Below the pieces are notes generated by a model, which was given only the letters and a program-made list of their open reading frames with translations, did not search any database and was not told the origin of the DNA. A stretch of DNA of 33,568 nt from a plasmid, in NCBI RefSeq assembly GCF_988242995.1, contig NZ_OZ547045.1; one strand, written 5' to 3'. A program made the position numbers and the translations under genes. This document shows positions 12,442 to 27,210 of this stretch, piece by piece (within the stretch, counting starts at the first letter, position 1; every line of letters begins with the position of its first letter).

Positions 12442-12451
12442 AGCAGGACAT

Positions 12452-13036
12452 ATGAAGATAGGCTACGCCAGAAAGTCAACTAAAGAGCAAGACACATCGC
12501 TTGAGTACCAGATTGAGGCTTTACAAAAAGCCGGGTGCGAAAAGTGGTATGCGGAGCAGGTATCGAGAAGCGGTAGTAAACGGCTTAAAGCAGGTACACC
12601 AGAGTTAGAAAATTGCATCAAAGCGCTTCGCCCTGGTGACACGCTGGTTGTGTGGGCGCTAGATCGGTTGGGCGGGACTCTATTACAGCTTTTGCAGCTT
12701 ATGAATGAGCTACGCAACAAAGGCATTCATTTTGAAAGTATTAAAGAACATATCGACACACAAAGTCCAATGGGTGAAATGTACTATTCGCTCATAGCTA
12801 TTTTTTCCAATTTCGAGGTAGCCAGAAACCACGAAAGGACAATGGCCGGGCTTGCGGCTGCAAAGAAGAAAGGGCGCATTGGTGGCAGAAAACCAAAGCT
12901 ATCACCACAAGACATAAAAGAAATTAACGCGCTTGTTAAATCGCCAGAAGTTACGGTAAAAGAGATCGCGGCTCGTTTTAACGTGTCACGGCCAACGATT
13001 TACAGACACATTACCCCCGATAGTAATACTGATTAA
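12452..13036 (+). CDS. Serine recombinase of the resolvase/invertase family (plasmid multimer resolution)
   Basis: 194 aa; N-terminal GYARKSTKEQ with catalytic Ser, C-terminal HTH (VSRPTIYRHI). Confidence 0.9.
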   Translation: MKIGYARKSTKEQDTSLEYQIEALQKAGCEKWYAEQVSRSGSKRLKAGTPELENCIKALRPGDTLVVWALDRLGGTLLQLLQLMNELRNKGIHFESIKEHIDTQSPMGEMYYSLIAIFSNFEVARNHERTMAGLAAAKKKGRIGGRKPKLSPQDIKEINALVKSPEVTVKEIAARFNVSRPTIYRHITPDSNTD

Positions 13037-13068
13037 CCGGCGGCAAACGGTAGCGAAGGAGCTAAACA

Positions 13069-13953: not shown

Positions 13954-13975
13954 GCCCATACGGGCCTTTTTTTTA
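13951..13975 (+). terminator. Rho-independent terminator after repA
   Basis: GGCCCATACGGGCC hairpin followed by T8. Confidence 0.75.
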
Positions 13976-14056
13976 TTCACAGCAATTCCACTGCGATTTT
14001 CTGACCAGATCGGGGTAATGTGAACAAACCTGTAAAAAACCTGTTGAAACATGAAG

Positions 14057-14370
14057 TTATCCACGTACATCCGACCCCCCTGATTACCGTACATCCGACC
14101 CCCCTTGTCGTACATCCGACCCCCTAGCTTTGTACATCCGACCCCCTAAGTCGTACATCCGACCCCCTTTTTTTGTACATCCGACCCCCTATTTTTTGTA
14201 CATTAGACCCCCTGAAAATACGTACATCAGACCCCCCCTAAACCTATAAGGTGATCTCCTGTAGGTTTCCTGTAGTTTGACCGATAGCACTTAACCTATA
14301 AATTTTGCTTCTAAGAGATCAGCCTGTATGAATGCCCTCCGATAATTTATTCAATAAAATCAGTGGATAA
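14057..14370. other. oriV: DnaA-box-like sites flanking the iterons plus an AT-rich stretch
   Basis: TTATCCACG at 14057..14065; AGTGGATAA at 14362..14370; AT-rich 14280..14400. Confidence 0.7.
14065..14240. repeat. Iteron array: 8 direct repeats of GTACATCCGACCCCC at 21-24 bp spacing (last two degenerate)
   Basis: Repeat units begin near 14065, 14089, 14110, 14132, 14153, 14175, 14198 and 14222. Confidence 0.85.
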
Positions 14371-14713
14371 AATAATAAATCGAATAATTTAAGTTCAGTG
14401 TGTACGTGCCAATATCAGCAGCGGGAGCCTTTGCGCTTCCTCGCTTTTGTTGTTCGTTCCTCGCGTTGCTGCGGTACGCCTCAACAAAAGACTGCGGCGA
14501 GCGCTGCGATCTCTCAGGTAACAGATTGGGATTTAGTGCAAAGGGGGGAGGTAAAAAAGAGTGAGGCCCATCACCGGCAAGTAATGGGCCTCTGTCTTTC
14601 CTGCGAAGGAGCAGATTAGACGTTGTAAGAAGTATAGACGAAAGCAGTGTGGTATTGAAAGGGGATTCAGAGCGCCCTATATTTAATCATCAATACATCA
14701 ATTTTGGTGACTT

Positions 14714-15133
14714 ATGAAAAAAACGCTATTGAGCCTAACCCTGTTAGCTACCACCTGTCAGGCAAGCGCCCAGCCTTGCACAGTGATCTTTGAAAATGGT
14801 CAGTTAATTACGTTACCGGCGGCTGTCACTCAGGCAGACCAGGTGAAAGGGCTATCTGGTGATAATCACAACACCGGCTTAATCCTGGCATGGAACACAG
14901 CAGAACCCCGCGCAGTCTGGATGAAAAACACACCGAATCCACTTACAGCGGCGTTTATCAGTGCAAATGGCGTAATCCAGAGCGTTCAGGATATGCAGCC
15001 CAACAGCGACACCGCGCATTCATCCCTCCACCCGACCATAGCAATCATTGAGATGAGGACGGAAAAATTTAAACAGTTCAAATTATCAAAAGGCGACAAA
15101 GTCATTTCCAGCCAATGTTTCCCCCTCAAATAA
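14714..15133 (+). CDS. Hypothetical secreted protein
   Basis: 139 aa, signal peptide with ASA cleavage motif; no family recognised. Confidence 0.5.
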   Translation: MKKTLLSLTLLATTCQASAQPCTVIFENGQLITLPAAVTQADQVKGLSGDNHNTGLILAWNTAEPRAVWMKNTPNPLTAAFISANGVIQSVQDMQPNSDTAHSSLHPTIAIIEMRTEKFKQFKLSKGDKVISSQCFPLK

Positions 15134-15245
15134 CGCCTCAGAACCCCGTAGAGCCATTCAATCAGAAAAAAGCGGCCTCATGTACAGCTCAACCAAAATA
15201 GCCGCTTACAGAGCCATACAGCGCGTATATAACCAATATCGCCCG

Positions 15246-15690
15246 GCGGCACCGGCGCTAACGTGCCTGTAGGGGCGCTGGCCGCGCTGCGGCCATCCCC
15301 CCAACACCCGGATAAATCGCGCCCGGCCCGTCGCTACGCGCCAGCCCGCCCGCTCAACCGGGCCGTTGTGACGGGCCACTGTTCCGGCAGCGGCATCGTG
15401 TGACAGCCCGCTAAAACCGGCTTTGCAGGGAGGGGGTGGGCGCGTCTCCCGGTTTGATCCCGCAAGGCCCGGCAATTTGACCACGTCGCCCAGGTTGAGA
15501 TCGGCGCAGTTGCCTTTTATTTGTCGGCATCGGCGCTAAATTTAAGTAAATTTATCGTACTATATAATGATACTTAAAGTTGACTTTTGAGGGGGAAAAG
15601 CCTATACTTTATTTACGGTTAGCAATGGTGCTGACCGACCCGGAACCAGTGGCGGCAACCGCTCCGGGGAACTTGCGAAGGGGGCAAGAA
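15246..15690. repeat. CUP-like GC-rich repeat, copy A (5'-truncated; lacks the first ~198 bp of copies B and C)
   Basis: Near-identical to 18515..18959 and 20672..21113. Confidence 0.85.
15580..15636 (+). promoter_or_regulatory. Cassette promoter P1 (TTGACT-17-TATACT) with leader hairpin GGTTAGCAATGGTGCTGACC
   Basis: -35 at 15580..15585, -10 at 15603..15608, inverted repeat at 15617..15636. Confidence 0.7.
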
Positions 15691-15960
15691 ATGAATTTAA
15701 CCACACTGCTTAAAAAGCATTTTGATATTGAGGAATGTACAGATGTAGACCCTATGGTAAACCGGGAGGTTTACGCCATATGGGTTTATGAAAAAGGCGA
15801 GGATTGCGAGCCGCTTTTAATCCTCAAAGATGCTCAGGATGTTATGGGCGTAGACGGCTGGCTTGTCGGGAATATCTATTCCACGTTGCAACATGGCTTA
15901 TTGCTTCAGCATGAAGAACTGAAAATGATGATCCGAAACGGCGAGATTAAGAGCCGTTAA
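15691..15960 (+). CDS. Hypothetical small protein (first gene after cassette P1)
   Basis: 89 aa; ATG 10 nt after the conserved CTGCGAAGG leader end; ORF track shows a longer frame whose upstream part lies in the repeat. Confidence 0.6.
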   Translation: MNLTTLLKKHFDIEECTDVDPMVNREVYAIWVYEKGEDCEPLLILKDAQDVMGVDGWLVGNIYSTLQHGLLLQHEELKMMIRNGEIKSR

Positions 15961-15970
15961 ATGTTTATGC

Positions 15971-16048
15971 GGTCGGCAATGGTGCCGACCGGCCCGGAAT
16001 CAGCGGCGGCAACCGCTCCGGGCAAACTGCGAAGGTACAGAGGCTAAT
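15971..16048 (+). promoter_or_regulatory. Promoter-less copy of the cassette leader (both hairpins plus RBS) in the intercistronic gap
   Basis: GGTCGGCAATGGTGCCGACC (15971..15990), CCCGGAATCAGCGGCGGCAACCGCTCCGGG (15993..16022), CTGCGAAGG, then ATG 16049. Confidence 0.6.
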
Positions 16049-16264
16049 ATGTCAGTAAAAGATTTCTCCCCTACCCTGGAAATTAAATTCCATCGTCGCC
16101 GCTGGCGTATCATGGCTGGATGCTCAAGCCTGGCGTCGTTCCGCTCCGAGCAGGACGCGATTGATGCGCTCAATAAGCGGCGCTCATTCTATGAATATTG
16201 GGCCGGTTCTGCCGGTGTCCAGGCAGAGAACACCGAGCCGGTGATAGTCCACATAACCTATTGA
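16049..16264 (+). CDS. Hypothetical small protein
   Basis: 71 aa; preceded by the leader-only cassette. Confidence 0.55.
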   Translation: MSVKDFSPTLEIKFHRRRWRIMAGCSSLASFRSEQDAIDALNKRRSFYEYWAGSAGVQAENTEPVIVHITY

Positions 16265-16341
16265 ACACTTTTAAAGCCCGTAAACCGGGCTTTTTTAGTC
16301 TTTAAAGTACAATTAAAAGTAAAAAATAATGATACCAATAG

Positions 16342-16399
16342 TTGACTTATGGAGGGTGAACACCTATACTTTATTCATCGGTTAGCAATAGTGCTGACC
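16342..16399 (+). promoter_or_regulatory. Cassette promoter P2 (TTGACT-17-TATACT) with leader hairpin
   Basis: -35 at 16342..16347, -10 at 16365..16370, GGTTAGCAATAGTGCTGACC at 16380..16399. Confidence 0.7.
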
Positions 16400-16453
16400 G
16401 GCCCGGAACCAGCGGCGGCAACCGCTCCGGGCAAACTGCGAAGGAGTAATATT

Positions 16454-17281
16454 ATGTTATCTAGCCGTTTTCGTTCTGCAAATATCCTGCGTTCTGACCG
16501 CCCTCTTAACGATGATCAAATCATGCGTTATGCCCCGTCTATCTTTGCAACTGAAGCGCATGAAAGCCGCTCTGACCGGTACGCTTACATTGCGACCAGC
16601 GAAGTGTTAAACGGTTTGCGTGATAACGGTTTTCATCCGTTTATGGTTTGTCAGACTCGCGTTCGCAACCTGGATAAGCGCGAACACACCAAGCACATGA
16701 TCCGTCTGCGTCATGCCGGGCAAATTAACGGTACAGAAGCGAAGGAAATCATTTTGCTTAACTCGCACGATGGCAGCAGCAGCTATCAAATGCTGGCCGG
16801 TGTATTCCGTTTCGTTTGCCATAACGGTTTAGTGTGTGGTGATACGGTAGCGGATATTCGTATTCCCCATAAAGGCGATGTTACCGAGCGCGTTATTGAA
16901 GGGGCATTTGAGGTGCTGGATCAGTTTGATATGGTTGAAAGCCATATGGAATCTATGAAGTCTGTAACGCTGGATGCGCTGGAGAAGCGTATTTTTGCAG
17001 AAGCGGCGTTAGCACTGCGTTATGACGAACAAAAAGACGGCCCCGCACCAATCGCCGCTAGCCAGCTCCTTGAGGCGCGCCGTTTTGAAGATCGCAAAGA
17101 TGATTTATGGACAACGTTTAACCGCGTACAGGAAAACATTATCCGTGGTGGTTTGAGCGCCAGAACCAAACAGGGGAAATCAACCCGTACCCGCGCCGTA
17201 ACTGGTATGGATAAAGATACGTCTTTAAACCGCGCTTTATGGATTCTCAGCGAGCGCATGAATGAAATTAAAGCCGCTTAA
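16454..17281 (+). CDS. Conserved plasmid leading-region protein, possibly DUF932-type (family name uncertain)
   Basis: 275 aa; ATG after the conserved leader; located immediately upstream of ssb. Confidence 0.6.
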
Positions 17282-17289
17282 TGGCAAAT

Positions 17290-17315
17290 GCCCCGCTTAC
17301 CGGCGGGGCTTTTAT
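17290..17315 (+). terminator. Intrinsic terminator / attenuator between the upstream gene and ssb
   Basis: GCCCCGCttaccgGCGGGGC hairpin followed by TTTTAT. Confidence 0.55.
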
Positions 17316-17337
17316 CAACCCGAAAAAGGTGATTATC

Positions 17338-17838
17338 ATGGCTTCAAGAGGTGTTAATAAAGTAATTCTGGTCGGCAATTTAGGCCAAGATCCTGAAGTG
17401 CGTTATATGCCGAACGGCGGCGCGGTTGCCAACATTACGCTAGCCACGTCAGAAAGCTGGCGCGACAAGCAGACCGGCGAAATGAAAGAACAAACGGAAT
17501 GGCATCGCGTTGTATTATTCGGCAAGCTGGCAGAGGTCGCCGGGGAATATCTGCGCAAGGGTTCGCAGGTGTACATTGAGGGCCAGCTCAGAACACGTAA
17601 ATGGACAGATCAAGCTGGCGTGGACAAGTACACTACAGAGGTTGTCGTTAACGTTGGCGGCACTATGCAGATGTTAGGCGGTCGCCAGCAAAACGGCTCT
17701 CAGCCAGGTAATAATGAATGGGGCCAGTCGCAGCAGCCGCAAGGCGGCCAGCAGTTCAGCGGCCAGCCACAGAACACCGGCGCAGCGCCAGCGGCAGGAA
17801 ATGAGCCGCCTCCTTTTGATGATGATATTCCGTTTTAG
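17338..17838 (+). CDS. ssb: Single-stranded DNA-binding protein
   Basis: 166 aa; OB-fold N-terminus ([43 protein letters not shown]), Gly/Gln-rich linker, acidic C-terminal tail DDDIPF. Confidence 0.95.
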
Positions 17839-17961
17839 CCCTGATAAATATTTAAATGTAAATTTATTTACAGATTTATCTAAATAAATAACCGTTTTAG
17901 AGTTAACCTTCTGTAATTATTGATTAAATCGGCCCGTTTTCGGGCCGTAATGAGGTAAAAA

Positions 17962-18264
17962 ATGGCAGTAGAACGCATTTCCCCTGAAGAATGGCAGCGC
18001 ATCGCACCGGCATTGCGTACATGCAGCCAGGTAACGATCGATATGGCTTATGCCGTACTGGTTGATGGCCGTAAACAAGTAGATGTGGCGTCAGAGTTTG
18101 ACCGGTCAAAGCAAACGGTCAATGCGGCTATCAGGCGCGTTACTGCAATTTTTAACGAGGTTATCCCGGAAGATGAGCAGTTAGAATTTGTACAAGTCTG
18201 GTTGCCGCCAGAGCTGGCGAAGCAGGTAAAAGAAATGGCTAAACCGTATCAGAATAAAAAATAA
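17962..18264 (+). CDS. Small HTH transcriptional repressor, KorA/TrfB-like (possible ArdK-type regulator of the cassette promoters)
   Basis: 100 aa; AYAVLVDGRKQVDVASEFDRSKQTVNAAIRRV resembles the KorA HTH region (from memory). Confidence 0.5.
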   Translation: MAVERISPEEWQRIAPALRTCSQVTIDMAYAVLVDGRKQVDVASEFDRSKQTVNAAIRRVTAIFNEVIPEDEQLEFVQVWLPPELAKQVKEMAKPYQNKK

Positions 18265-18316
18265 CAGGAGTTATCGACATGTGTGAGTACGGATTTAAAA
18301 ACTAACTGAAAAAAAT

Positions 18317-18959
18317 CACTTATGGCGTTCCCTGCGGGGCGGGCTTTCGTGCTGCGCATCGAGCCAGGCAAGCTGTCTCGCCCCTTCGGGCTTCAATCCC
18401 TAACGCCTCCGGGCTGTCGCCCTCCGCGCTCCGCTTGACCCCCACGCCCTGCGCCGGACTTGCCCCGCCTACGGCGGCCCCGCCCCTCCGGGGTGGCTTC
18501 GCCATCCTCTGCCAGCGGCACCGGCGCTAACGTGCCTGTAGGGGCGCTGGCCGCGCTGCGGCCATCCCCCCAACACCCGGATAAATCGCGCCCGGCCCGT
18601 CGCTACGCGCCAGCCCGCCCGCTCAACCGGGCCGTTGTGACGGGCCACTGTTCCGGCAGCGGCATCGTGTGACAGCCCGCTAAAACCGGCTTTGCAGGGA
18701 GGGGGTGGGCGCGTCTCCCGGTTTGATCCCGCAAGGCCCGGCAATTTGACCACGTCGCCCAGGTTGAGATCGGCGCAGTTGCCTTTTATTTGTCGGCATC
18801 GGCGCTAAATTTAAGTAAATTTATCGTACTATATAATGATACTTAAAGTTGACTTTTGAGGGGGAAAAGCCTATACTTTATTTATCGGTTAGCAATGGTG
18901 CTGACCGACCCGGAACCAGCGGCGGCAACCGCTCCGGGCAATCTGCGAAGGTGGGAATT
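18317..18959. repeat. CUP-like repeat, full copy B (GC-rich body ~530 bp plus promoter/leader)
   Basis: Near-identical to 20474..21113. Confidence 0.9.
18849..18906 (+). promoter_or_regulatory. Cassette promoter P3 (TTGACT-17-TATACT) with leader hairpin
   Basis: -35 at 18849..18854, -10 at 18872..18877, inverted repeat at 18887..18906. Confidence 0.7.
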
Positions 18960-19268
18960 ATGAATACTTTCAACGCTGACAAAATCCGCTCTGAACTGGA
19001 TGTTTTAGCGAAAGAAACAATGCCCGGTTGTGGTCTTATTTACGAGCTGTATCAGCGTCGTTTGAGCGCTGCCATTGATAACTTTGTCGCTACCCTGCCA
19101 GCAGAACAACACGCCCAGGCATTTGAACTGGCCCGCCAGGAGTTTGATTACCTTTCTGCGGAAGAAATTGCTGATGAAATCCGCCGCGACTCAGAAAACG
19201 GCTATTGCAGCCACGGCATTGATCGCAATTGCTGCCCTTTGGGTTGCGGGGATTTGGACGATTATTAA
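18960..19268 (+). CDS. Hypothetical small protein with C-terminal Cys cluster
   Basis: 102 aa; ends ...GYCSHGIDRNCCPLGCGDLDDY; ATG after the conserved leader. Confidence 0.6.
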   Translation: MNTFNADKIRSELDVLAKETMPGCGLIYELYQRRLSAAIDNFVATLPAEQHAQAFELARQEFDYLSAEEIADEIRRDSENGYCSHGIDRNCCPLGCGDLDDY

Positions 19269-19351
19269 TTGACAGGGGGCTATTGCCCCCTACAACCAAA
19301 ACGGGCGGCGGCAACCGCCACTATTTAAACAATCTGCGAAGGATATAGATT

Positions 19352-19774
19352 ATGAGCGCATACGTGGTATCTGATAAATCCATTTCTACTATCGTTAAAA
19401 CTCTGGTTATTGCCGGTACACTTCAACCTGTCGAAGCTGTTTCTTTTGGTCAGATGATGCTTAATCTGAATACTCATTCCGTTAATATTCGCTATCAAGA
19501 AAACAGCCCGGCGCACCCTTTTGAATACAGCGACCCGGAATTAAATATCCATGACCCCAAAACTCAAATGCAGGTGATTGTCTGTATTGATGAATATGAA
19601 TATCAGTCCTGCGAGTTTGCCGAATACTATGAAACGATGGTGCATACAGTCCTAAAAGCCATCAAATCAGCGCTTATGCAGGCTTACACGGATATGTTGC
19701 CTAACCCATCGCAATGGAAAGAAAAAAAGTCCTATGACTTGCCAGGCTACTCAGAAGCTGAATGGGGTTTATGA
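19352..19774 (+). CDS. Hypothetical protein
   Basis: 140 aa; preceded by a partial leader (GGCGGCGGCAACCGCC ... CTGCGAAGG); followed by tandem hairpin terminator. Confidence 0.6.
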   Translation: MSAYVVSDKSISTIVKTLVIAGTLQPVEAVSFGQMMLNLNTHSVNIRYQENSPAHPFEYSDPELNIHDPKTQMQVIVCIDEYEYQSCEFAEYYETMVHTVLKAIKSALMQAYTDMLPNPSQWKEKKSYDLPGYSEAEWGL

Positions 19775-19780
19775 TTGAAC

Positions 19781-19830
19781 GGGGGGGAAATCCCCCCCTT
19801 CTACCTGAAGGGGCTACGCCCCTTTTTTTA
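19781..19830 (+). terminator. Tandem hairpins with T-run
   Basis: GGGGGGGaaatCCCCCCC then AGGGGCtacGCCCCT followed by T7. Confidence 0.7.
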
Positions 19831-19845
19831 TGCCGGTTTTATGCC

Positions 19846-20005
19846 GCTTACTTATGGCGTTCCCTGCGGGCCGGGCTTTCGTGCTGCGCATCGAGCCAGG
19901 CAAGCTGTCTCGCCCCTTCGGGCTTCAATCCCTAACGCCTCCGGGCTTTCGCCCTCCGCGCTCCGCTTGGCCTCCGGGCTTTCGCCCTCCGCGCTTTGCT
20001 TGGCC
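19846..20005. repeat. CUP-like repeat fragment D (left arm only) with an internal 33-bp tandem duplication
   Basis: Matches the left ~125 bp of copies B and C; CCTCCGGGCTTTCGCCCTCCGCGCT(C/T)(C/T)GCTTGG duplicated at 19939..19971 and 19972..20004. Confidence 0.8.
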
Positions 20006-20243
20006 TTTCCAGCCGGTGCCAGCTCCGGGCCGCGAGGATAACCGGCGGGAGGCGAACTGTCCTCCACAGCTCCCCGTTCCGTTGGATGGTCTGCCGTTCC
20101 TCCATTACCGGTATTCCACACTAGCGCGGTGTGGCGTCAATAGTTCGCTTCGCCGCTTCGCGCTATTGACCCCACCCCTTGCGCCAGTGTTACACACCGG
20201 TTGTCGGAAACGACAAACCCTCCAACTACCCTACAGGTGCTTT

Positions 20244-20348
20244 ATGGCCGAAATTCTCCAACTCCTCCCGCCGGTTATCCTCGCTATTGCAGCCCTCATC
20301 ACAGCCATCACCGGGCTAATAAAAGTCCTGAAAAGCAAGAAGAAGTAA
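20244..20348 (+). CDS. Candidate 34-aa hydrophobic peptide
   Basis: MAEILQLLPPVILAIAALITAITGLIKVLKSKKK; AGGTG 5 nt upstream; followed by a hairpin at 20354..20373. Confidence 0.35.
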   Translation: MAEILQLLPPVILAIAALITAITGLIKVLKSKKK

Positions 20349-20352
20349 CGGA

Positions 20353-20380
20353 AAGGGGCGGCAAGCCGCCCCTTTCCCCT
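20353..20380 (+). terminator. Hairpin after the small peptide ORF (weak T-tract)
   Basis: AGGGGCGGCaagCCGCCCCT followed by TTCCCCT. Confidence 0.4.
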
Positions 20381-20473
20381 GCTCCCCTTGCTTACCCTGC
20401 TGTACGATCCGTGGATTTCACAGTTGAATAATTTTTTGTGGTCGCCGTAATTGGCCCCGCTGCGCCAGTCGCT

Positions 20474-21113
20474 TACTTAGGGCGTTCCCTGCGGGCCGGG
20501 CTTTCGTGCTGCGCATCGAGCCAGGCAAGCTGTCTCGCCCCTTCGGGCTTCAATCCCTAACGCCTCCGGGCTTCGCCCTCCGCGCTCCGCTTGGCCCCCA
20601 CGCCCTGCGCCGGACTTGCCCCGCCTACGGCGGCCCCGCCCCTCCGGGGTGGCTTCGCCATCCTCTGCCAGCGGCACCGGCGCTAACGTGCCTGTAGGGG
20701 CGCTGGCCGCGCTGCGGCCATCCCCCCAACACCCGGATAAATCGCGCCCGGCCCGTCGCTACGCGCCAGCCCGCCCGCTCAACCGGGCCGTTGTGACGGG
20801 CCACTGTTCCGGCAGCGGCATCGTGTGACAGCCCGCTAAAACCGGCTTTGCAGGGAGGGGGGGGGCGCGTCTCCCGGTTTGATCCCGCAAGGCCCGGCAA
20901 TTTGACCACGTCGCCCAGGTTGAGATCGGCGCAATTGCCTTTTATTTGTCGGCATCGGCGCTAAATTTAAGTAAATTTACCGTACTATATAATGATACTT
21001 AAAGTTGACTTTTTAGGGGGGAAAATCTATACTTTATTTACGGTTAGCAATGGTGCTGACCGACCCGGAACCAGCGGCGGCAACCGCTCCGGGTAATCTG
21101 CGAAGGAAAATGT
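20474..21113. repeat. CUP-like repeat, full copy C
   Basis: Near-identical to copy B over about 640 bp. Confidence 0.9.
21005..21061 (+). promoter_or_regulatory. Cassette promoter P4 (TTGACT-17-TATACT) with leader hairpin
   Basis: -35 at 21005..21010, -10 at 21028..21033, inverted repeat at 21042..21061. Confidence 0.7.
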
Positions 21114-21395
21114 ATGAATACGACCCTTTTTGTTTTAATCCTTGCCGTAGCTGGCGCGTTGTATCTGCCCTGGCGACTTGTGCGCGATGGTTACAAAGAG
21201 CTTGTACAGATGTGTCTGTTTTGCTCCTGTATCGTCACGCTGGCCGCTGTATATGCCGTGTTGGTCAATCTCAATAACCCACACCCGTTTATGCCTATGT
21301 TTATCGCGGTAACGGCGTTCGGTGCGGTATTTGTGGCTGATTGCGCTTTATCTCTCTGGCTCTATCAGCGTAAAGCTAAGACGGCTAACCACTAA
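21114..21395 (+). CDS. Hypothetical small membrane protein
   Basis: 93 aa with three hydrophobic segments; an overlapping alternative frame from ATG 21110 looks non-protein-like. Confidence 0.55.
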   Translation: MNTTLFVLILAVAGALYLPWRLVRDGYKELVQMCLFCSCIVTLAAVYAVLVNLNNPHPFMPMFIAVTAFGAVFVADCALSLWLYQRKAKTANH

Positions 21396-21405
21396 CCACT
21401 AACTA

Positions 21406-21428
21406 AACCGCCCTGCGGGGCGGTTTTT
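21406..21428 (+). terminator. Rho-independent terminator
   Basis: CCGCCCtgcgGGGCGG hairpin followed by T5. Confidence 0.65.
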
Positions 21429-21449
21429 AACCGTGATACGGGGGCAATT

Positions 21450-21692
21450 ATGGGAAACATCATTTTGATGGCCGAGAAGCTAAAAGGCGCGGTTTCCGAT
21501 GAATATGAAGTGTATGAATTTGAGGGCATGGATGATTTGATCCGGTTTCGTAAGAAATACCCGGAACAAATGAAGTATGAATATTCTTACTGTCTATCTG
21601 GCGGTACGAAAGATTTTCACCATATTGCGCTCGTCGAAGCTGACCATTTTAAGCAGTTCAAAAAGCAGGTTGACCAGTACCAGGCTCGATAA
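21450..21692 (+). CDS. Hypothetical small protein
   Basis: 80 aa, hydrophilic; no motif recognised. Confidence 0.5.
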   Translation: MGNIILMAEKLKGAVSDEYEVYEFEGMDDLIRFRKKYPEQMKYEYSYCLSGGTKDFHHIALVEADHFKQFKKQVDQYQAR

Positions 21693-21773
21693 CCTTGAAC
21701 GGCGCGGCAATACCGCGCTGTTTTTTACCCTCTATTTATGTCTTATTTTAGTATCATATTATGATACTAAATA

Positions 21774-21831
21774 TTGACTTATCAGGCCGCAAAAAGTATA
21801 CTTTATTTATCGGTTAGCAATGGTGCTGACC
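21774..21831 (+). promoter_or_regulatory. Cassette promoter P5 (TTGACT-17-TATACT) with leader hairpin but no second hairpin; upstream palindrome AGTATCAtattaTGATACT
   Basis: -35 at 21774..21779, -10 at 21797..21802, inverted repeat at 21812..21831. Confidence 0.65.
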
Positions 21832-21851
21832 GTATGCGAAGGAGTAAAGTT

Positions 21852-22007
21852 ATGAAAAAATTCATTGGCAACCGTAACGGCAAGGCGGTTTTTCAGGAAG
21901 GTGATCGTGAGTTGGTAGCCGCTTACCAGATGAAATCCTCCCCGATTCCGGTAACGCCACGCAAGCTGAAAGCTGAAATGGATGCTATCGCCGCTACAGC
22001 CCGATAA
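21852..22007 (+). CDS. Hypothetical small protein
   Basis: 51 aa; ATG after GCGAAGGAG RBS of the shortened leader. Confidence 0.45.
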   Translation: MKKFIGNRNGKAVFQEGDRELVAAYQMKSSPIPVTPRKLKAEMDAIAATAR

Positions 22008-22082
22008 TCATTCACCCGCGCCGTTGGCGCGGGTAACTCTCACAGCGGCGGCAACCGCTTTTTTATGCGAAGGAGCAACGCG

Positions 22083-22265
22083 ATGTATCTATCTTTGATG
22101 GAACAAGCACGACAGGCAGAGGAATTGCGCGACTGGAAAACCGCCGCGCAACTCTACACCCAGGCGATGGCCGTTAGTCCAAAAGCCAGAACTATGCGCC
22201 AGCGCCGCGAAAGGCTGTATCTGCAACAGCGCATTGAGTTTTGCGAGCGTAATTCGAGAATGTAA
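22083..22265 (+). CDS. Hypothetical small protein
   Basis: 60 aa; preceded by AGCGGCGGCAACCGCT hairpin, T6 and GCGAAGGAG. Confidence 0.45.
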   Translation: MYLSLMEQARQAEELRDWKTAAQLYTQAMAVSPKARTMRQRRERLYLQQRIEFCERNSRM

Positions 22266-22271
22266 AAAACT

Positions 22272-22304
22272 AAAAAAAACCGCCTCAATCCGGCGGTTTT
22301 TTTT
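22272..22304. terminator. Bidirectional rho-independent terminator between convergent genes
   Basis: A8 ... ACCGCCtcaatccGGCGGT ... T8. Confidence 0.75.
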
Positions 22305-22306
22305 GG

Positions 22307-23074
22307 TTAGGCTGCCTGGTATTCTGCCTTTCCGCAGTGTTCGCCGCCACAGTACAGAATTAGGCCCGGTTTCCCCCAAACGTTGGTATGGCATTTCGGG
22401 CAGGTGTATTTTGTCCGGTTTGATTTATTAACCGGCGTATCCGGTGGCGGGTTTACCAGGGAAAGGGCTTGCGTGATCTCATCATCCAGCTCGCCATTGT
22501 CGCTGTAACCCTCATCATCATCGCCATCATCAACATAACCTTTGCCGTCTGCGCCGGTTGGCGTTGGTGGCGTTGGTTTGTGCGGTGGGAACCTGTCCAG
22601 CCAGCTCAGTTTAAACTCCGTGGTTAGCAACTCCTTGCAGGCTGTATCAAACGGGCCGCCGTCCTCGATGTAGTGGCTCATCGACTCACCGACGCGCTTT
22701 CCTCCGGGCTGGCCGCTGTCGGATGGTATCAGGCCGATGCGCTCCATCATCGCCGCCCACTCTTTATTGTGGTATCCACGGCGTCCCGGTTGGCCGGTGT
22801 GTTGTTGGTACTGGTGAACCATTTCATGCACAAGCGTGGAAAGTGTGTCGCGTATCGTGCGGATCGAGAAATAGACCGGATTCATGGCGATTTCATCAAC
22901 GATTTGGCCGGTTGTGCGGCCAACAAAACGGGCATTTGAGAAATAGCCAAACGTTCGTTTTTCGCGCTGAAGGGTGATTAGGCAGGGCGGCAGCGTACTA
23001 TCAAACAGCCGCTGATTGAAAAATTCGTATGCGCGTTGAAGCTCGTCGTAAGTTTCCTGGGTAGGGATGATCAT
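22307..23074 (-). CDS. SprT-like zinc metalloprotease-domain protein with C-terminal zinc ribbon
   Basis: HEMVHQY (HExxH) motif, acidic linker, CPKCH...YCGGEHCG; start taken at ATG 23074 (TGAGG RBS); ORF track extends to 23113 across the operator repeats. Confidence 0.7.
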   Translation of the reverse strand: MIIPTQETYDELQRAYEFFNQRLFDSTLPPCLITLQREKRTFGYFSNARFVGRTTGQIVDEIAMNPVYFSIRTIRDTLSTLVHEMVHQYQQHTGQPGRRGYHNKEWAAMMERIGLIPSDSGQPGGKRVGESMSHYIEDGGPFDTACKELLTTEFKLSWLDRFPPHKPTPPTPTGADGKGYVDDGDDDEGYSDNGELDDEITQALSLVNPPPDTPVNKSNRTKYTCPKCHTNVWGKPGLILYCGGEHCGKAEYQAA

Positions 23075-23095
23075 AGCGGCCTCATAAATTAATTT

Positions 23096-23141
23096 CTGGA
23101 TTGTGCAATCCATTTTATTGCTTATGGATTGTGCAATCCAC
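23096..23141. promoter_or_regulatory. Two copies of the palindrome GGATTGTGCAATCC in the promoter region upstream of the SprT-like gene
   Basis: Copies at 23098..23111 and 23126..23139; the same 14-mer occurs three times inside the stbA-like gene. Confidence 0.6.
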
Positions 23142-23149
23142 TTTTATTT

Positions 23150-23233
23150 TGGGCGTTCCCTGCGGGCGGGCTTTCGTGCTGCGCATCGAGCCAGGCAAGC
23201 TGTCTCGACCCTTCGGGCGTCAATCCCTAACGC
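23150..23233. repeat. Isolated 84-bp left-end module of the CUP-like repeat (copy E)
   Basis: GGGCGTTCCCTGCGGGCGGGCTTTCGTGCTGCGCATCGAGCCAGGCAAGCTGTCTCGACCCTTCGGGCGTCAATCCCTAACGC matches the first 84 bp of copies B, C and D. Confidence 0.8.
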
Positions 23234-23242
23234 AATCCAGGC

Positions 23243-23269
23243 AAAAAAAAGCGGCCCGCATGGGGCCGC
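23243..23269 (-). terminator. Rho-independent terminator of the minus-strand stb-like operon
   Basis: On the minus strand GCGGCCCcatgcGGGCCGC followed by T8. Confidence 0.7.
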
Positions 23270-23287
23270 TTCCGGTCAGGCTTTTTA

Positions 23288-23656
23288 TCAGTGCAGCAGG
23301 AACGTTATAGCCGCCGCGCCGAGCGCTCCACCAACAAAGGAACAGACAACCGTGATAATCAGTATCTGCCTGATAAGCGCTTTCGAAAACCCTGTATGCG
23401 CCCCGGCCAGACGTTCAAAAAATTGTTCGCTAACCTTCTGCTCCTTCTTCAGAGTGTTGACCAGCTCGCGCTGGCTTGCGATCACTTCTGTTTTCGCAGT
23501 CTCCGATGATTTTGCTATCGCGTCGGAGGCTTTATCCAGCCGTTCTATTGCTTCGGTAACGCTTACACTTACACTTTCCAGTTTTGAGGTGATTTCTTTA
23601 GCATCGCCTAAAAACCAGTCCATCAGGACATCTAATTTATCAGGTTGCTTTTCCAT
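23288..23656 (-). CDS. Hypothetical coiled-coil protein with C-terminal TM anchor (third gene of the stb-like operon)
   Basis: 122 aa; helical N-terminal part, hydrophobic C-terminus. Confidence 0.55.
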   Translation of the reverse strand: MEKQPDKLDVLMDWFLGDAKEITSKLESVSVSVTEAIERLDKASDAIAKSSETAKTEVIASQRELVNTLKKEQKVSEQFFERLAGAHTGFSKALIRQILIITVVCSFVGGALGAAAITFLLH

Positions 23657-23657
23657 A

Positions 23658-24368
23658 TTATTCAGCCGTTAATATTTCAAAGGTGCGATCAAGATTACGT
23701 TTAACCGGTAATGCTAATTTCATCCAGCGATAACGACGCGCAGCCGCCGCACGTTCATCGGCATCGGTGCAAGTTTTAGCTTTTGCTTTAAAGGTTTCTG
23801 GATCTTCTGCCAGCAGTTCTTCAAACGAAATTTTGTGATACGCGAGGTATTCATAAATTTCACTTTCAAAAACGGCGGCATCTTTATGAATAGAGGCTTT
23901 TTTAGAATCTTTCGCCCATTCATATACCGAAGCAATATCCTCCTGCGGAGTCGATTTAATGCGGTTAGGCAGAAGAACAATTTTAGATTTAGGAACGCCA
24001 GCGGCACTTAACGCGAGGGCGGTCTTAATACTTTCCTGCCATGCTTTATCATCCGGGGTGACAGGAATCAGATATTTATCAAATTCGTCAATTGCACCCT
24101 CATATTTTGTCATGGTAGAAAGAAACCGCTCAACGTTCGACGCGCCAATATCCACGATGGCATTATCTTCAAATACGATTTCTTCAACGAGTTGACCAAA
24201 GTTATCGCCGGTTAAGCTCATCACTTCATCAACACCCAAATCCGCAGCCGACATATTGATTGTCTCGATGGCAAAGAATTTAGCGCCAGCCATGCGAGGA
24301 TACAGCAGGTATGACGAAATAATGGTTTTGCCGACGCTGCCACTGTAATTCATTACTGCAATTTTCAT
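23658..24368 (-). CDS. stbB: ParA/StbB-like partition ATPase
   Basis: 236 aa; N-terminal deviant Walker A (KIAVMNYSGSVGKT); position as in R388/pKM101 stb operons next to oriT. Confidence 0.75.
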   Translation of the reverse strand: MKIAVMNYSGSVGKTIISSYLLYPRMAGAKFFAIETINMSAADLGVDEVMSLTGDNFGQLVEEIVFEDNAIVDIGASNVERFLSTMTKYEGAIDEFDKYLIPVTPDDKAWQESIKTALALSAAGVPKSKIVLLPNRIKSTPQEDIASVYEWAKDSKKASIHKDAAVFESEIYEYLAYHKISFEELLAEDPETFKAKAKTCTDADERAAAARRYRWMKLALPVKRNLDRTFEILTAE

Positions 24369-24380
24369 CTGTAAGCTCCT

Positions 24381-24815
24381 TTAGAAACCTTTCTTATTAC
24401 CTACGCTACCTTTGAATGAGGTTGCGACTTTCTTTGCCTCATCACCAATTTTTTTAAAATCGGTATCGGATAAAAATTCTTTGTTCCCGCCCATATCCTC
24501 AACTAATTTTTCTGGTTCTGGATTGTGCAATCCAGTTTCCACCGGTTCCGCTTTCTCCTGCTCTTTTGGATTGTGCAATCCAGTATTTACCGTACTTTCT
24601 GGATTGTGCAATCCACCTTTTTTGCGTTTCAATCTTGCCCGGTACAAGGCCATATCTAACGCTTTCACAGTCACAGAAAAGCTGTATTCACTATCAAGAA
24701 GTTGAGCAATTTCTTGCCTACTAATACCCTTGTCTAACAAACCTTCAATCTCATCAAGACGCGCTCTTACAGCCGCAGCGAGATTGCGAGGTTCCAGTAA
24801 AAGGTCTTTTTTCAT
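24381..24815 (-). CDS. stbA: StbA-like DNA-binding protein with N-terminal HTH and C-terminal GLHNP repeats
   Basis: 144 aa; first gene of the operon divergent from oriT; three in-frame GLHNP repeats encoded by palindromic 14-mers. Confidence 0.5.
   Translation of the reverse strand: MKKDLLLEPRNLAAAVRARLDEIEGLLDKGISRQEIAQLLDSEYSFSVTVKALDMALYRARLKRKKGGLHNPESTVNTGLHNPKEQEKAEPVETGLHNPEPEKLVEDMGGNKEFLSDTDFKKIGDEAKKVATSFKGSVGNKKGF
24518..24616. repeat. Three intragenic copies of the operator-like palindrome (C)TGGATTGTGCAATCCA(G)
   Basis: Copies at 24518..24535, 24566..24583 and 24599..24616; spacings 48 and 33 bp. Confidence 0.85.
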
Positions 24816-24839
24816 ACCACCCCCGCTTGTCGAATTTCA

Positions 24840-25290
24840 CTATATGGCAGCCTGTTTTAGCTGTCAATCGGTTTTTGTAGTATTTCAGTAGTATTCCTGT
24901 AGTAATTCAGTAGTAACGCTTGTCGATACCGCTCATTTTTGTAGTATATCTGTAGTAATGGCTATTTCAGTTTGTAGTATTTTAGTAGTAATTCAGTAGT
25001 ATCGGTGTAGAAAACTTTCATGCAAGCATGAAAGTGGTGAATGTGAACGCTTTTTGAGCGTTTTATGCGTGTGTAAGACCTGTTTCTCCCTTAAAAAAGG
25101 CGTGTTATGGTATCCCTTAATGGCTATACACCATACGCAATTACGATTTTCATCGTAAATGCTTGAAAACAAAACAAATTATTCTAATTTGTGTTTTCAT
25201 ATGTAATACACTACGTATTACATATGTGTGTCTAAGCCGCATATATGCTAGATTTAACTGTATTACATCGGTATTACATCAAGGAAACCC
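24840..25290. other. oriT region: 11-bp direct repeats, inverted repeats and a putative nic site
   Basis: About 10 copies of (T/A)GTAGTA(T/A)(T/A)nn in 24876..25010; IR ACTTTCATGCaaGCATGAAAGT (25014..25035); IR CATATGTAATACactacGTATTACATATG (25198..25226) followed by GTGTGTCT|AAGCC. Confidence 0.65.
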
Positions 25291-25638
25291 ATGCCAACAA
25301 TCAGTTTAAGAGTGACCGAAGCGCAAAAAATCGACCTTGAATTTCGTTCGGAGGGCAACGTATCGGACTACATCAAGCAACAGCTTTTTGGACAAAAAGA
25401 GAGTGCCAGCGAAGTGATCTCCCGGCTTGATAAACTTCTGGAACGTCCTGTTTCAGAGCATCAAGCAGCCGGGCGAGATAGGTACATCGAGGCTATGTTG
25501 ATCGAGGTGTTATTGATACTTCGCCAGGTGAGTAAAGCAGATGCGCAGAAAGTAGCCGGTGGTGAAATTCGGCGCTTAGGGCTGGAGCCGTGGTCAGCAG
25601 AACTGGCCCAGGAAAGAGAGGAACAGAGTCATGAATGA
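25291..25638 (+). CDS. trwA: Relaxosome accessory protein (TrwA/TraK-like, ribbon-helix-helix)
   Basis: 115 aa; N-terminal MPTISLRVTEAQK beta-strand typical of RHH proteins; directly upstream of the coupling-protein gene. Confidence 0.7.
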   Translation: MPTISLRVTEAQKIDLEFRSEGNVSDYIKQQLFGQKESASEVISRLDKLLERPVSEHQAAGRDRYIEAMLIEVLLILRQVSKADAQKVAGGEIRRLGLEPWSAELAQEREEQSHE

Positions 25639-27208
25639 AGCGGATAAGGGTAAAATTTGCCTGGGAGCATTGCTGTTTACCCCTCTAGTTACGTGGTTTA
25701 TTGCTGCAAAATCATTGTATGGATTTACGCCAAAAGATGCGCGTGAACGTCTGGTTTTGCTTATTCAACAGACCTTTGATTTATGGCCGTTATGGGGCGC
25801 TTTATTAGCCGGTGAGATAGTTGCCATTATAGGGCTTGTCATCTTTTTTAAATTTAACCACCAGATATTCAAAGGCGCACCATTTAAGAAAATATACCGT
25901 GGCACACGGCTTGTTTCAAAAAGAGCTTTAGCCTCATTAACCAAAGAAAGGGAGCCGCAAATAACGATTGCTGATATTCCAATTCCTACTAAAGCAGAGG
26001 CTACGCATATTTCTATAGCCGGTGCTACAGGCGTTGGTAAGTCAACAATATTTGCTGAAATGATGAAATGTTGTTTAATGCGCGGCAAGATGGAGCGCGT
26101 AGCTTCAAAGAAAGACCGCATGATAATACTAGATCCAGACGGTGATTTTCTTTCTCGCTTTTATAAGAAAGGCGATAAGATTTTAAATCCCTACGATGCC
26201 AGAACGGAGGGGTGGGTATTTTTTAATGAAATTAAAAGTGATTTTGACTTTGAGCGGTTCGGTGTTTCAATCGTACCTACAGCGAAAGATTCACAAACAG
26301 AAGAATGGAATGGATACGGTCGCCTTTTGTTTACCGAGGTAGCGCGGAAGGTATTTAACACAAGCCGAAATCCAACAATGGAAGAAGTATTCTATTGGAC
26401 AAACGAAGTACCATTAGAAGAACTTGAAGGATATGTCAGAGGAACTAAAGCGCAGGCTTTATTTGCCGGTAGCGGTCGGGCCGTGGGTAGCGCTCGCTTT
26501 GTGCTTAGTAATAAACTTGCCGCGCACCTGAAAATGCCGACAGGAGATTTTTCAATTCGTGAATGGCTAGACGATCCAAACGGTGGGAATTTATATATCA
26601 CCTGGACTGATGAAATGCGTGAAGCACTGAAATCACTTATTTCATGCTGGACAGATAGCATTTTCTCTATTGTGTTAGGGATGAGTTCAAGCCATACCCG
26701 GAAAATCTGGACATTTATAGATGAACTGGAATCCCTTGATTACCTACCTTCATTGCGTGATGCGTTAACTAAAGGCCGCAAAAAAGGGCTTAGAGTTGTC
26801 ACCGGCTATCAATCGTATTCACAGGTTATCAGCATCTATGGCAGCGATGTAGCCGAAACCCTTTTATCTAACCATCGTACATCCGTTGTCATGGCCGCCG
26901 GTCGCCTGGGTGAAAGAACACTGGAATTTGTCTCTAAATCATTGGGTGAGATTGAAGGTGAAAGAGAGAAAACAGGAATTAGCCGCCGCTTTGGTCAGTT
27001 GGGAACAAAAAATACCAATGAAGATCACAAGCGCGAACGGGCAGTAACGCCAACCGAAATCGCTACGCTGGATGATTTGACCGGCTACATAGCGTTTCCG
27101 GGAAGTCTGCCAGTGGCAAAATTTGAGACTCATCACGTTAAATACACTCGTTCTAACCCCGTACCGGGCGTTGTCTTACGTGAAAGCACCGCATTTGCAG
27201 GAATGTAA
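25631..27208 (+). CDS. trwB: Type IV coupling protein (VirD4/TrwB family)
   Basis: 525 aa; N-terminal TM helices, Walker A GATGVGKST; overlaps trwA end. Confidence 0.9.
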   Translation: MNEADKGKICLGALLFTPLVTWFIAAKSLYGFTPKDARERLVLLIQQTFDLWPLWGALLAGEIVAIIGLVIFFKFNHQIFKGAPFKKIYRGTRLVSKRALASLTKEREPQITIADIPIPTKAEATHISIAGATGVGKSTIFAEMMKCCLMRGKMERVASKKDRMIILDPDGDFLSRFYKKGDKILNPYDARTEGWVFFNEIKSDFDFERFGVSIVPTAKDSQTEEWNGYGRLLFTEVARKVFNTSRNPTMEEVFYWTNEVPLEELEGYVRGTKAQALFAGSGRAVGSARFVLSNKLAAHLKMPTGDFSIREWLDDPNGGNLYITWTDEMREALKSLISCWTDSIFSIVLGMSSSHTRKIWTFIDELESLDYLPSLRDALTKGRKKGLRVVTGYQSYSQVISIYGSDVAETLLSNHRTSVVMAAGRLGERTLEFVSKSLGEIEGEREKTGISRRFGQLGTKNTNEDHKRERAVTPTEIATLDDLTGYIAFPGSLPVAKFETHHVKYTRSNPVPGVVLRESTAFAGM

Positions 27209-27210
27209 AC

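Follow-up and report, generated by a model that had tools for sequence, protein, structure and literature searches.

The stretch of plasmid DNA analyzed in this study, referred to as the window, comprises 33,568 nucleotides (nt) of contig NZ_OZ547045.1 (NCBI RefSeq assembly GCF_988242995.1). At positions 20244–20348 it contains an open reading frame (ORF) of 34 codons, which an original prediction, made from the letters alone, had presented as a hydrophobic peptide gene with its own terminator in a repeat-rich region. The coordinates and translation of this ORF were reproduced exactly from the window sequence. The ORF is very likely a translated gene for a single-pass membrane peptide, and its start lies within a long palindrome that is a candidate promoter of the single-stranded DNA (ssDNA) form of the plasmid. 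The features at the gene are as follows.

20244–20348 (stop codon included), + strand: small-peptide gene, 34 codons, translation MAEILQLLPPVILAIAALITAITGLIKVLKSKKK
20235–20239, + strand: Shine-Dalgarno (SD)-like AGGTG, 4 nt before the ATG
20201–20216, + strand: 5'-terminal stem-loop of the predicted mRNA, TTGTCG-GAAA-CGACAA; a stem-loop is found here in every lineage, with differing sequences
20350–20377, unstranded: GC hairpin past the stop codon with a perfect 13-bp stem; a hairpin is found at this position in all lineages

The peptide gene and its conservation

The peptide possesses a hydrophobic core, LLPPVILAIAALITAITGLI, and KSKKK at its tail. The hydrophobic helix and the tail are kept across the family of homologs, and the translation and this conservation confirm the peptide with one transmembrane helix and a basic tail of the original prediction. 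Also as predicted, the ORF doubles as the C-terminal end of a longer, GC-rich ORF of 172 amino acid (aa) residues (19830–20348). By itself, an ORF of 34 codons is within chance, and its significance comes from the conservation of its frame. The AGGTG has a spacing equivalent to about 6 nt for GGAGG, allowing for the pairing position on the 16S rRNA tail. The SD region, ACAGGTGC, was unchanged in six of the seven aligned lineages and reads TCAGGTGT in the metagenome lineage L018. The only features common to the seven aligned mRNAs were the 5' stem-loop, the SD, a 4-bp stem between the SD and codon 2, and the 3' hairpin. RNAalifold analysis of these mRNAs identified no conserved structure that masks the SD, except for the 4-bp stem. 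The hairpin at 20350–20377 has no T-run on the + strand and a T-rich tail on the − strand, and the terminator scan flagged it on the − strand only. Thus, of the predicted terminator, the GC hairpin after the stop codon is present, but the U-tract is missing from the + strand of this plasmid.

Homologs were searched for with blastn (11-nt words) by comparing positions 20090–20440 with 72,556 plasmids. The same ORF was found in about 490 IncN1-type PLSDB records with about 70% nucleotide identity, in a match confined to 20189–20375, which covers the untranslated region at the 5' end (5'UTR), the ORF and the hairpin. About 1,160 IncL/M PLSDB records, including pOXA-48, also carry a homolog, and the lineage of the window comprises 92 records. 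The peptides read MAEILQLLPPVILAIAALITAITGLIKVLKSKKK in the window, MTSTILENLPQIITSLAALITAVTGLIKVLRDKDK in IncN1 and MTSSEILHNLPQIITAVAALITAITGLIKVMKDKGKD in IncL/M plasmids. The differences at codon positions 1, 2 and 3 were 10, 5 and 19 between the window and IncN1, and 6, 2 and 19 between IncN1 and IncL/M. The frame of 20244–20348 had the highest aa identity, and the other frames contained stops in some lineage or were far less conserved. The NG86 dN/dS values ranged from 0.08 to 0.48 for all 15 pairs of six lineages, with dS values of 0.7–2.9 that place synonymous sites near saturation. Together, these comparisons indicate that the peptide frame is under purifying selection. The original prediction was to stand or fall with the conservation of the frame in related plasmids, which was found in both IncN1 and IncL/M.

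A profile search of 1.84 billion representative proteins yielded 42 matches, of which the credible ones were peptides of 32–40 aa residues or mis-called longer ORFs ending in the peptide. Residues L8, P9, A16, T20, A21, G24 and L25 were invariant across the family and would form a Leu-Pro cap as well as a stripe of small residues on one face of the helix (A16, T20/A21, and G24). The predicted inner-membrane peptide would begin with a short acidic or polar N-terminus, followed by the invariant Leu-Pro, the helix with its small-residue face and the charged tail. According to the positive-inside rule, its N-terminus is probably outside and its charged tail in the cytoplasm. The Pfam scan assigned the peptide to no family, and the NCBIfam scan gave only a sub-threshold match to NF038396 (15.8 bits, with a cut-off of 40). 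All 12 peptides of the family alignment matched PHROG 3399, whose function is unknown, weakly (best E 1.6e-4). An Rfam search of the locus returned chance hairpin matches only. Matches to PDB entries were spurious alphaRep repeats without a passing stretch and were rejected. In a scan of contigs with one genome per species, the only matches were an IncL/M fragment and two transmembrane segments that are unrelated; a scan of viral contigs found no homolog, and a full-text literature search found the core motif of the peptide in no paper.

In pOXA-48 (NZ_CP068840.1), PGAP annotates a hypothetical protein of 60 aa residues, WP_172684944.1, at 5983–6165 on the − strand, antisense to the peptide gene. 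In the IncN lineages, stops interrupt the frame of this protein, which makes it probable that a shadow ORF was called instead of the true small gene.

Location in the leading region

The window region shares 99–100% identity with IncN plasmid pCFSAN004085 and about 96% with about 90 further plasmids of 34 kb that are of PLSDB type MOBF/MPF_T. The window contains a complete IncN backbone, including a resolvase, RepA with iterons, DUF932, SSB, the KorA/TrfB-like ArdK, CUP repeats, a SprT-like protein, stbCBA, a TrwB-like coupling protein and a TrwC relaxase. The feature that orients this backbone is the following.

25121–25136, − strand: nic-like core of the transfer origin (oriT), a hairpin followed by GCGTATGGTGT/ATAGCCATTAAGGGATACC

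We take the hairpin and GCGTATGGTGT/ATAGCCATTAAGGGATACC to be the nic-region pattern of R388 and IncN plasmids. On the − strand of 25040–25160, the oriT hairpin TTTACGATgaaaATCGTAA precedes GCGTATGGTGT/ATAGCCATTAAGGGATACC. In addition, arrays of GTAGTA(T/A)T-type repeats flank the oriT core at 24870–25010 and may be binding sites for StbA or TraK. The nic-like site is located between stbA (24381–24815, − strand) and the genes for a TraK-like protein, the coupling protein and the TrwC relaxase (25291–30117, + strand). In this plasmid group, the stb genes are 3' of the nick and reach the recipient first (PMC3098194). The nic-like site, the gene order and the entry of the stb side first indicate that the − strand is the transferred strand. 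This puts the peptide ORF about 4.8 kb inside the leading region, with the incoming strand as its template. The peptide locus thus has the setting of known ssDNA promoters, which are found in leading regions with the transferred strand as template.

The peptide gene was also in the leading region of its other carriers wherever the flank was long enough to tell, co-oriented with its neighbors and read toward oriT. Across the lineages, these neighbors include genes for ssb, KlcA/ArdB-like proteins, ArdA, Hha and DUF932 proteins, all pointing toward nikA/relaxase or stb/oriT. For instance, in IncN1 plasmids, the peptide gene is between a ccgD-like gene and ardA. In a third, metagenomic IncN-like lineage, it is upstream of the SprT gene and stbCBA. 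In pOXA-48 and three diverged IncL/M-like lineages, it is between the genes for Hha-family and KlcA/ArdB-like proteins, which are followed by ssb, DUF5983, nikA and relaxase genes. The Hha-family gene immediately upstream was reported to be necessary for efficient transfer of IncL/M plasmids (PMC12365149). As judged from these matches, the peptide family is restricted to the leading regions of IncN and IncL/M-type enterobacterial plasmids.

In the reference plasmid R46 (NC_003292.1, 24042–25762), ardA adjoins ccgC, and both the peptide cassette and the preceding ORF of 333 nt, which is common to most IncN1 plasmids, are missing. Their absence is consistent with a CUP-mediated deletion, and it probably explains why the gene was omitted from the classic description of the pKM101 leading region.

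Several other elements of the backbone were also recognized. Directly upstream of the serine resolvase gene (12452–13036), positions 12335–12440 contain repeated TGTAACAAAA motifs, including a 14-nt perfect inverted repeat, and are probably a res site. Downstream of repA (13069–13953), tandem copies of GTACATCCGACCCCC about 21–22 bp apart at 14089–14196 are probably replication iterons. Outside the leading region, the window encodes a protein of 133 aa residues with a C-terminal Hha domain (10726–11127, + strand) and a PemK/MazF-type toxin (11159–11485, − strand).

The palindrome at the gene start

The region between the peptide gene and the gene upstream of it contains a repeat fragment as well as a palindrome that extends into the peptide gene. 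Its features are as follows.

19850–19975, + strand: truncated 5' CUP fragment (fragment D of the original prediction), 126 nt, direct-repeat family D5, 97% identical to 18318–18443
20032–20284, − strand: imperfect palindrome of 253 nt, one long stem-loop on the transferred strand; candidate Frpo-like ssDNA promoter or single-strand initiation (ssi) element
20032–20052, unstranded: outer left arm GCGAGGATAACCGGCGGGAGG, perfect complement of ORF codons 7–14; a 21-nt 100% inverted repeat (E 1e-6 within the window)
20264–20284, unstranded: outer right arm, inside the ORF (codons 7–14, LLPPVILA), partner of 20032–20052
20107–20201, − strand: inner hairpin of 95 nt with a −35-like hexamer on both arms and an internal loop at the −10 region
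20166–20171, + strand: −35-like hexamer TTGACC, read from the sequence; TTGACA in IncN1 and L018
20135–20140, − strand: mirror −35-like hexamer TTGACG, read from the sequence
20188–20196, + strand: −10-like TGtTACACA, 19 bp from the −35 on duplex DNA

The gene upstream (19352–19774) ends in a canonical terminator at 19807–19825 with a T-run after it, and the peptide gene therefore has to be started by a signal of its own. The CUP promoter module, TTGACT-17-TATACT, was found at about 15540, 16302, 18809, 20965 and 21734, and no D4-type CUP promoter module was found between 19850–19975 and the ORF. The claim that the ORF is downstream of a promoterless repeat fragment was thus correct, as only a 126-nt copy precedes it. 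This distinguishes the peptide locus from the CUP-controlled regulon of IncN with its repressor ArdK, which is said to have been described by Delver and Belogurov in 1997. The locus shares the plasmid region and a cassette-like layout with this regulon, and it even begins with 126 nt of CUP. However, a CUP cassette has the full repeat, the promoter and the ArdK site directly upstream of its gene, whereas the peptide locus has the first 126 nt only, without the module of CUP promoter and ArdK site. Moreover, the cassette is absent from R46, the plasmid in which the regulon was described.

The −35, a spacer that contains an asymmetric internal loop, a −10 with mismatches, the 5'UTR, the SD, the ATG and the initial codons are all part of the palindrome's stem-loop. 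Folded as ssDNA, it gave −80.0 kcal/mol with a z score of −8.5 in the window, −109.8 kcal/mol (z −17.2) in L018 and −75.2 kcal/mol (z −7.6) in IncN1, the last being borderline against a threshold of −75 kcal/mol. This threshold is that of a published ssDNA-promoter screen, which folds 300-nt segments and retains those below −75 kcal/mol (PMC12672017) and was applied here to the − strand of 11000–25300. Four segments passed. Three of them were GC-rich CUP bodies with z scores of −2 to −3, and the fourth was the palindrome, with a z score of −9.3; it is the only segment in this region that passes independently of composition. The CUP bodies, which are about 450 bp each, pass at 15210–15539, 18300–18809 and 20430–20939 (69–75% GC) by composition alone. 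Thus, the published screen needs a shuffle control on GC-rich plasmids.

Comparison among lineages further suggests that the fold is maintained. The inner hairpin (inverted repeats I1/I3) alone folded at −34.5 kcal/mol on the − strand (z −6.6), and its architecture is repeated in IncN1 and L018 with a different sequence. Similarly, a 22-nt perfect inverted repeat of another sequence is found in L018 at the places equivalent to those of the 21-nt arms; the complement of the 21-nt arm is missing in IncN1 and IncL/M. The arms of the palindrome were only 63–74% identical among the three lineages compared. When arms were swapped, the native pairs folded at −76, −66 and −108 kcal/mol and the cross-lineage chimeras at −37 to −48 kcal/mol. 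Since native pairs fold better than chimeras although the arms have diverged, the arms co-evolve. The − strand was also the more stable of the two strands in each comparison (−76.1 versus −61.0, −65.6 versus −59.7, −63.9 versus −55.8, and −108.1 versus −89.6 kcal/mol), and it contains 5–9 G.T wobbles versus 0–2 on the + strand. The greater stability of the − strand and the asymmetry of the wobbles suggest that selection acts on the DNA strand that is transferred and not on an RNA of the + strand. It is therefore probable, on the basis of these folding models, that the palindrome is a functional structure of the transferred strand.

The same asymmetry bears on an action of the palindrome in RNA, in which read-through transcripts would fold back and hide the ribosome-binding site and the first codons, or be cut by RNase III, and so insulate a harmful ORF. 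Translation would then occur only from transcripts that start inside the right arm. The + strand RNA indeed folds at −117 kcal/mol in the window and −164 kcal/mol in L018, the SD and ATG are within the stem in L018 and IncN1, and inhibition by long-range fold-back is known in the hok and aapA1 mRNAs. However, the pairs that are G.T on the − strand are A.C mismatches on the + strand and so point to the − strand. In addition, a strong terminator already precedes the region, and promoter scans upstream of the left arm found none. A role in RNA is improbable on this evidence.

Because codons 1–14 are within the palindrome in two lineages, the ORF might also be untranslated and conserved merely as the right arm of a DNA structure. 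Codons 15–34, however, are outside the palindrome and are the best conserved at the protein level, with synonymous changes. Moreover, the IncL/M homologs are without the palindrome, yet their frame and SD are kept and their dN/dS values are well below 1. These findings make an untranslated ORF extremely improbable.

The perfect 21-bp repeats flank a segment of 211 bp that contains the promoter, the ribosome-binding site and the first six codons, and its inversion would disconnect the gene. Perfect repeats with lineage-specific sequence are typical of such invertons. A flipped junction was found in two metagenome contigs from different samples (L023, 1–190, and L024, 1–265), in which it creates a chimeric ORF of 45 aa residues (MEERQTIQRNGELWRTVRLPPVILAIAAL...). 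Against an invertible switch, the flipped junction was found in 0 of the 92 complete plasmids of the window lineage, the segment between the repeats is itself paired along its length, and the sole nearby recombinase is the resolvase with its unrelated TGTAACAAAA sites. Both contigs are low-coverage SPAdes assemblies (1.2x and 3.7x), and a 21-nt repeat is ambiguous at k=21. The flipped contigs represent either a rare inversion or an assembly artefact at k=21. With no flipped plasmid among the 92, low-coverage contigs and a nearby resolvase of unrelated sites, the switch was set aside as very improbable.

The 21-nt complementarity also bears on the suggestion of the original prediction that the peptide may be a type I toxin. 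In such a system, a membrane-depolarizing peptide would be checked by an antisense RNA, and post-segregational killing would stabilize the plasmid or its leading region. Similar to type I toxins, the peptide is small (<60 aa) and has one transmembrane helix, and its size, hydrophobic helix and basic tail resemble those of the Ldr, TisB or PepA1-type toxins. The left arm, 211 nt upstream, is a perfect complement to the ORF, and its 21 nt equal the length of the IstR-1/tisB duplex. In addition, the leading regions of F and IncI plasmids carry hok/flm modules (PMC9849209), and the small DqlB/AgrB system, which annotation often misses, is present in IncL/M and some IncN plasmids (PMC12365149). However, the only strong complement, 20032–20052, is on the same strand as the ORF, has no promoter before it and is missing in both IncN1 and IncL/M. 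It makes up the outer end of an uninterrupted hairpin, and the wobbles of this hairpin favor − strand DNA, not + strand RNA. A scan for promoter consensus on the opposite strand in or beside the ORF, which the original prediction had proposed as a search for the promoter of a small antisense RNA, found none in four of five lineages and one weak match, not conserved, in the IncL/M relative L010. Neither Rfam nor toxin families were matched, including the models of Hok, DinQ and DqlB; the Pfam and NCBIfam scans likewise gave no homology to Ldr, TisB, Ibs, ShoB, Zor or Fst. The SD is strong, with no conserved RNA structure masking it beyond the 4-bp stem. Moreover, AgrB alone rescues the killing that follows curing of pOXA-48, leaving little room for a further addiction module (PMC12365149). 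The suggestion of a type I toxin is thus unsupported by the scans and models, and such a toxin is hardly probable at this locus.

The peptide is nevertheless similar to Hok/FlmA and DqlB in being a short, often unannotated hydrophobic peptide with a single helix, and like DqlB it is common to IncN and IncL/M plasmids. Different from both, it has no sequence relationship to them, and no antitoxin RNA gene was found in the scans of its locus; different from dqlB, its gene is in the leading region and not beside repA. Identity with DqlB was rejected, as DqlB, the toxin of the DqlB/AgrB system that has been validated by experiment in pOXA-48, is encoded at another locus; its sequence, MINLLIVVLRAVVAVSNAVIAVLELIRQYFD, matches NF041473, whereas the peptide gave no match to this model.

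Two other interpretations of parts of the palindrome were also rejected. The conserved box CCGTTCCGTTGG was considered as a repeated protein-binding site, but it occurs only once in the window, where it is paired with the 5'UTR in the long stem. An attC-like site was dismissed by eye comparison, as the GTTRRRY core was missing.

Proposed early control in IncN and IncL/M plasmids

A −35 of the form TTGAC(C/A/G) is within the stem, on both arms, in all lineages. The −10-like element is 6–7 nt before the 5' stem-loop in all lineages, at the position of TATAAT in IncL/M plasmids. In duplex DNA, the −35 and −10 are separated by 19 bp in the window and by 20 bp in IncN1 and L018, and on the other, non-template arm of the fold, the spacer is 16–18 nt. 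The −10-like elements of the + arm are TACACA in the window, TACAGT in IncN1 and TACAAT in CP088696, whereas those of the other arm are GGAATA, TTCACT and GAAATG; they are weak and located in a mismatch or an internal loop. On these models, the chance that the palindrome acts as a promoter for the peptide gene is about even.

The palindrome shares several properties with Frpo1/Frpo2 of F and ssi1–3 of ColIb-P9/pESBL, which are class 1 ssDNA promoters. Similar to them, it is in a leading region with the transferred strand as template. In both cases, about 250–310 nt form an extended imperfect stem-loop with energies from about −76 to −110 kcal/mol, which has a −35 in the stem near the tip and an asymmetric internal loop in the spacer and is directly upstream of an early gene. 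Folded by the same method, Frpo2 of the F plasmid (311 nt) gave −77.7 kcal/mol with a z score of −6.2 and also had a bulge in the spacer region. As with other ssDNA promoters defined by structure, the palindrome passes the folding screen, and the gene next after the peptide cassette of IncN1 is ardA. Different from Frpo and ssi, its IncN host is MOBF/MPF_T, its −10 is non-consensus and its stem reaches into the coding sequence, whose first 14 codons make up the outer stem. Moreover, the gene that it would drive encodes a 34-aa membrane peptide and not ssb, psiB or ygeA. A megablast search with 19800–20450 found no IncI or IncF plasmid among the 30 matches listed.

The palindrome might instead be only a single-strand initiation site that primes the synthesis of the complementary strand in recipients, and an ordinary duplex promoter of low strength, or read-through, would then express the gene. 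Priming of DNA synthesis, besides transcription, is reported for Frpo/ssi elements (PMC12672017), and the −10 hexamers here are weak. No primase gene was noticed among the window ORFs scanned, and the transferred strand may thus depend on priming by the host. However, the consensus −35 is kept in the stem of all lineages, and the −10-like element is at the position of the IncL/M TATAAT relative to the 5'UTR. Furthermore, since the promoter, UTR and start region that make up the stem belong to the peptide gene itself, the stem is linked to this gene. A pure priming site is unlikely on this evidence, and the priming and promoter roles are not mutually exclusive.

Similar to the IncN gene, the homologous gene of IncL/M plasmids is preceded by a 5'UTR with a stem-loop, which is followed by CCTTACAGGTGCATTATG (CTTTACAGGTGCTCTATG in two relatives) and is homologous to the IncN one. 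Its promoter is different. The leading region of pOXA-48 (3866–9583) contains seven copies of TTGATT-17-TATAAT, in each of which the −10 overlaps a 14-bp near-perfect palindrome, ATTAGACGTATAAT, and the diverged relatives (L005, L010, and L011) contain six to eight copies of this promoter. Most copies precede a shared structured 5'UTR with TCGAAAGGCAAT, CTTTCG and CGGTAGCGCCCCGACTGGCGCAGGAG in this order; one precedes the peptide gene, which keeps its own 5'UTR. The terminator proposed for the gene is canonical, with A- and T-runs on either side, at three of the four IncL/M-type loci read. In pOXA-48, both this terminator and the next promoter are missing, and the peptide gene appears to be the first in a two-gene unit.

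The ATTAGACGTATAAT palindrome looks like an operator, and the promoter family like a repressor-controlled establishment regulon that is the counterpart of the CUP regulon of IncN, with Orf20 or KorC as candidate repressors. KorC and the XRE-like Orf20 are essential in pOXA-48, where the loss of plasmid repressors is detrimental. The arrangement resembles the kil-kor regulons of RP4 in that the IncL/M peptide gene is behind one of seven identical promoters with a palindrome overlapping the −10. Compared with these regulons, an action of KorC or Orf20 at ATTAGACGTATAAT and harm by the peptide are conjectural.

We consider the best explanation of these results, which we favor somewhat over its alternatives taken together, to be that the ORF is a genuine leading-region gene for a membrane peptide that is expressed in an early burst, timed in IncN plasmids by the hairpin. 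The peptide would be made in a short burst just after plasmid entry, with low expression once the plasmid is established. In IncN plasmids, the timing would come from the 253-nt palindrome, which includes the promoter, the 5'UTR, the ribosome-binding site and the first 14 codons. Folding of the incoming single strand would rebuild a duplex −35 (TTGAC), with a spacer of 16–18 nt on the non-template arm and a mismatched −10, as in the design of Frpo. Once the complementary strand is made, the same hexamers would be 19–20 bp apart and form a weak promoter. In IncL/M plasmids, the same gene and 5'UTR would be behind a repeated duplex promoter with a palindrome as operator and would reach zygotic induction by another route. 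During establishment, the peptide may act via helix-helix contacts, with itself or with a host membrane protein, and it may harm the cell if made continuously.

Several observations weigh against this explanation. The −10 of the window is poor on both arms (TACACA; GGAATA or GAATAC). In two IncN1-type plasmids that keep the 5'UTR and the peptide ORF, the inner hairpin has lost its tip or its left arm, and the IncL/M relatives carry the gene without any hairpin. A perfect inverted repeat can also persist via template switching or gene conversion, with no functional selection. The blastn search with 20090–20440 matched only IncN and IncL/M plasmids, with no similarity to IncF or IncI plasmids. 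R46 lacks the whole peptide cassette, and the gene is therefore dispensable and accessory. Furthermore, Frpo rebuilds canonical −35 and −10 boxes (PMC9849209; PMC11541004), and studies of pOXA-48 by transposon sequencing (Tn-seq) and CRISPR interference (CRISPRi) report no phenotype at the peptide locus, which neither targeted as a gene.

The hairpin deletions of the two IncN1-type plasmids differ from each other (NZ_CP115698.1, about 1560–1600; NZ_CP124396.1, about 1550–1590) and provide natural tests of the need for the hairpin. Downstream of the peptide gene, the next cassette encodes a protein of 93 aa residues with several hydrophobic segments and no Pfam match (21114–21395, + strand). 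No terminator was found on the + strand between the two genes, and transcripts from the hairpin promoter could thus continue through the CUP repeat between them into this gene.

An extension of the early burst, decidedly unlikely at present, is that the peptide serves as an effector of the entry phase. In IncN plasmids, its production would be possible only from the incoming single strand, and in IncL/M plasmids only until the repressor has accumulated. Its pulse might disarm a membrane-embedded host defense or stress sensor. Alternatively, it might be a dead-man switch that harms recipients destroying the plasmid before it is double-stranded and silenced, in which case completion of the second strand would be the "antitoxin".

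IncN and IncL/M (pOXA-48) plasmids rank among the main carriers of carbapenemase genes, and their leading regions are under study for anti-defense and establishment functions. The results from this study add an unannotated, conserved family of small membrane proteins in more than 1,700 sequenced plasmids. They also identify an element of an IncN plasmid as a strong ssDNA-promoter candidate, which would be a new sequence class of Frpo-like element. In the literature surveyed, the ssDNA promoters with experimental characterization are those of F and of the IncI1 plasmid pESBL only, and early expression in IncN plasmids has been attributed to repressor-controlled CUP promoters. If the proposed control is true, ssDNA promoters arise independently, fused to the start region of a gene, and the locus offers a testable case of two plasmid families in which separate early-only schemes control one gene.

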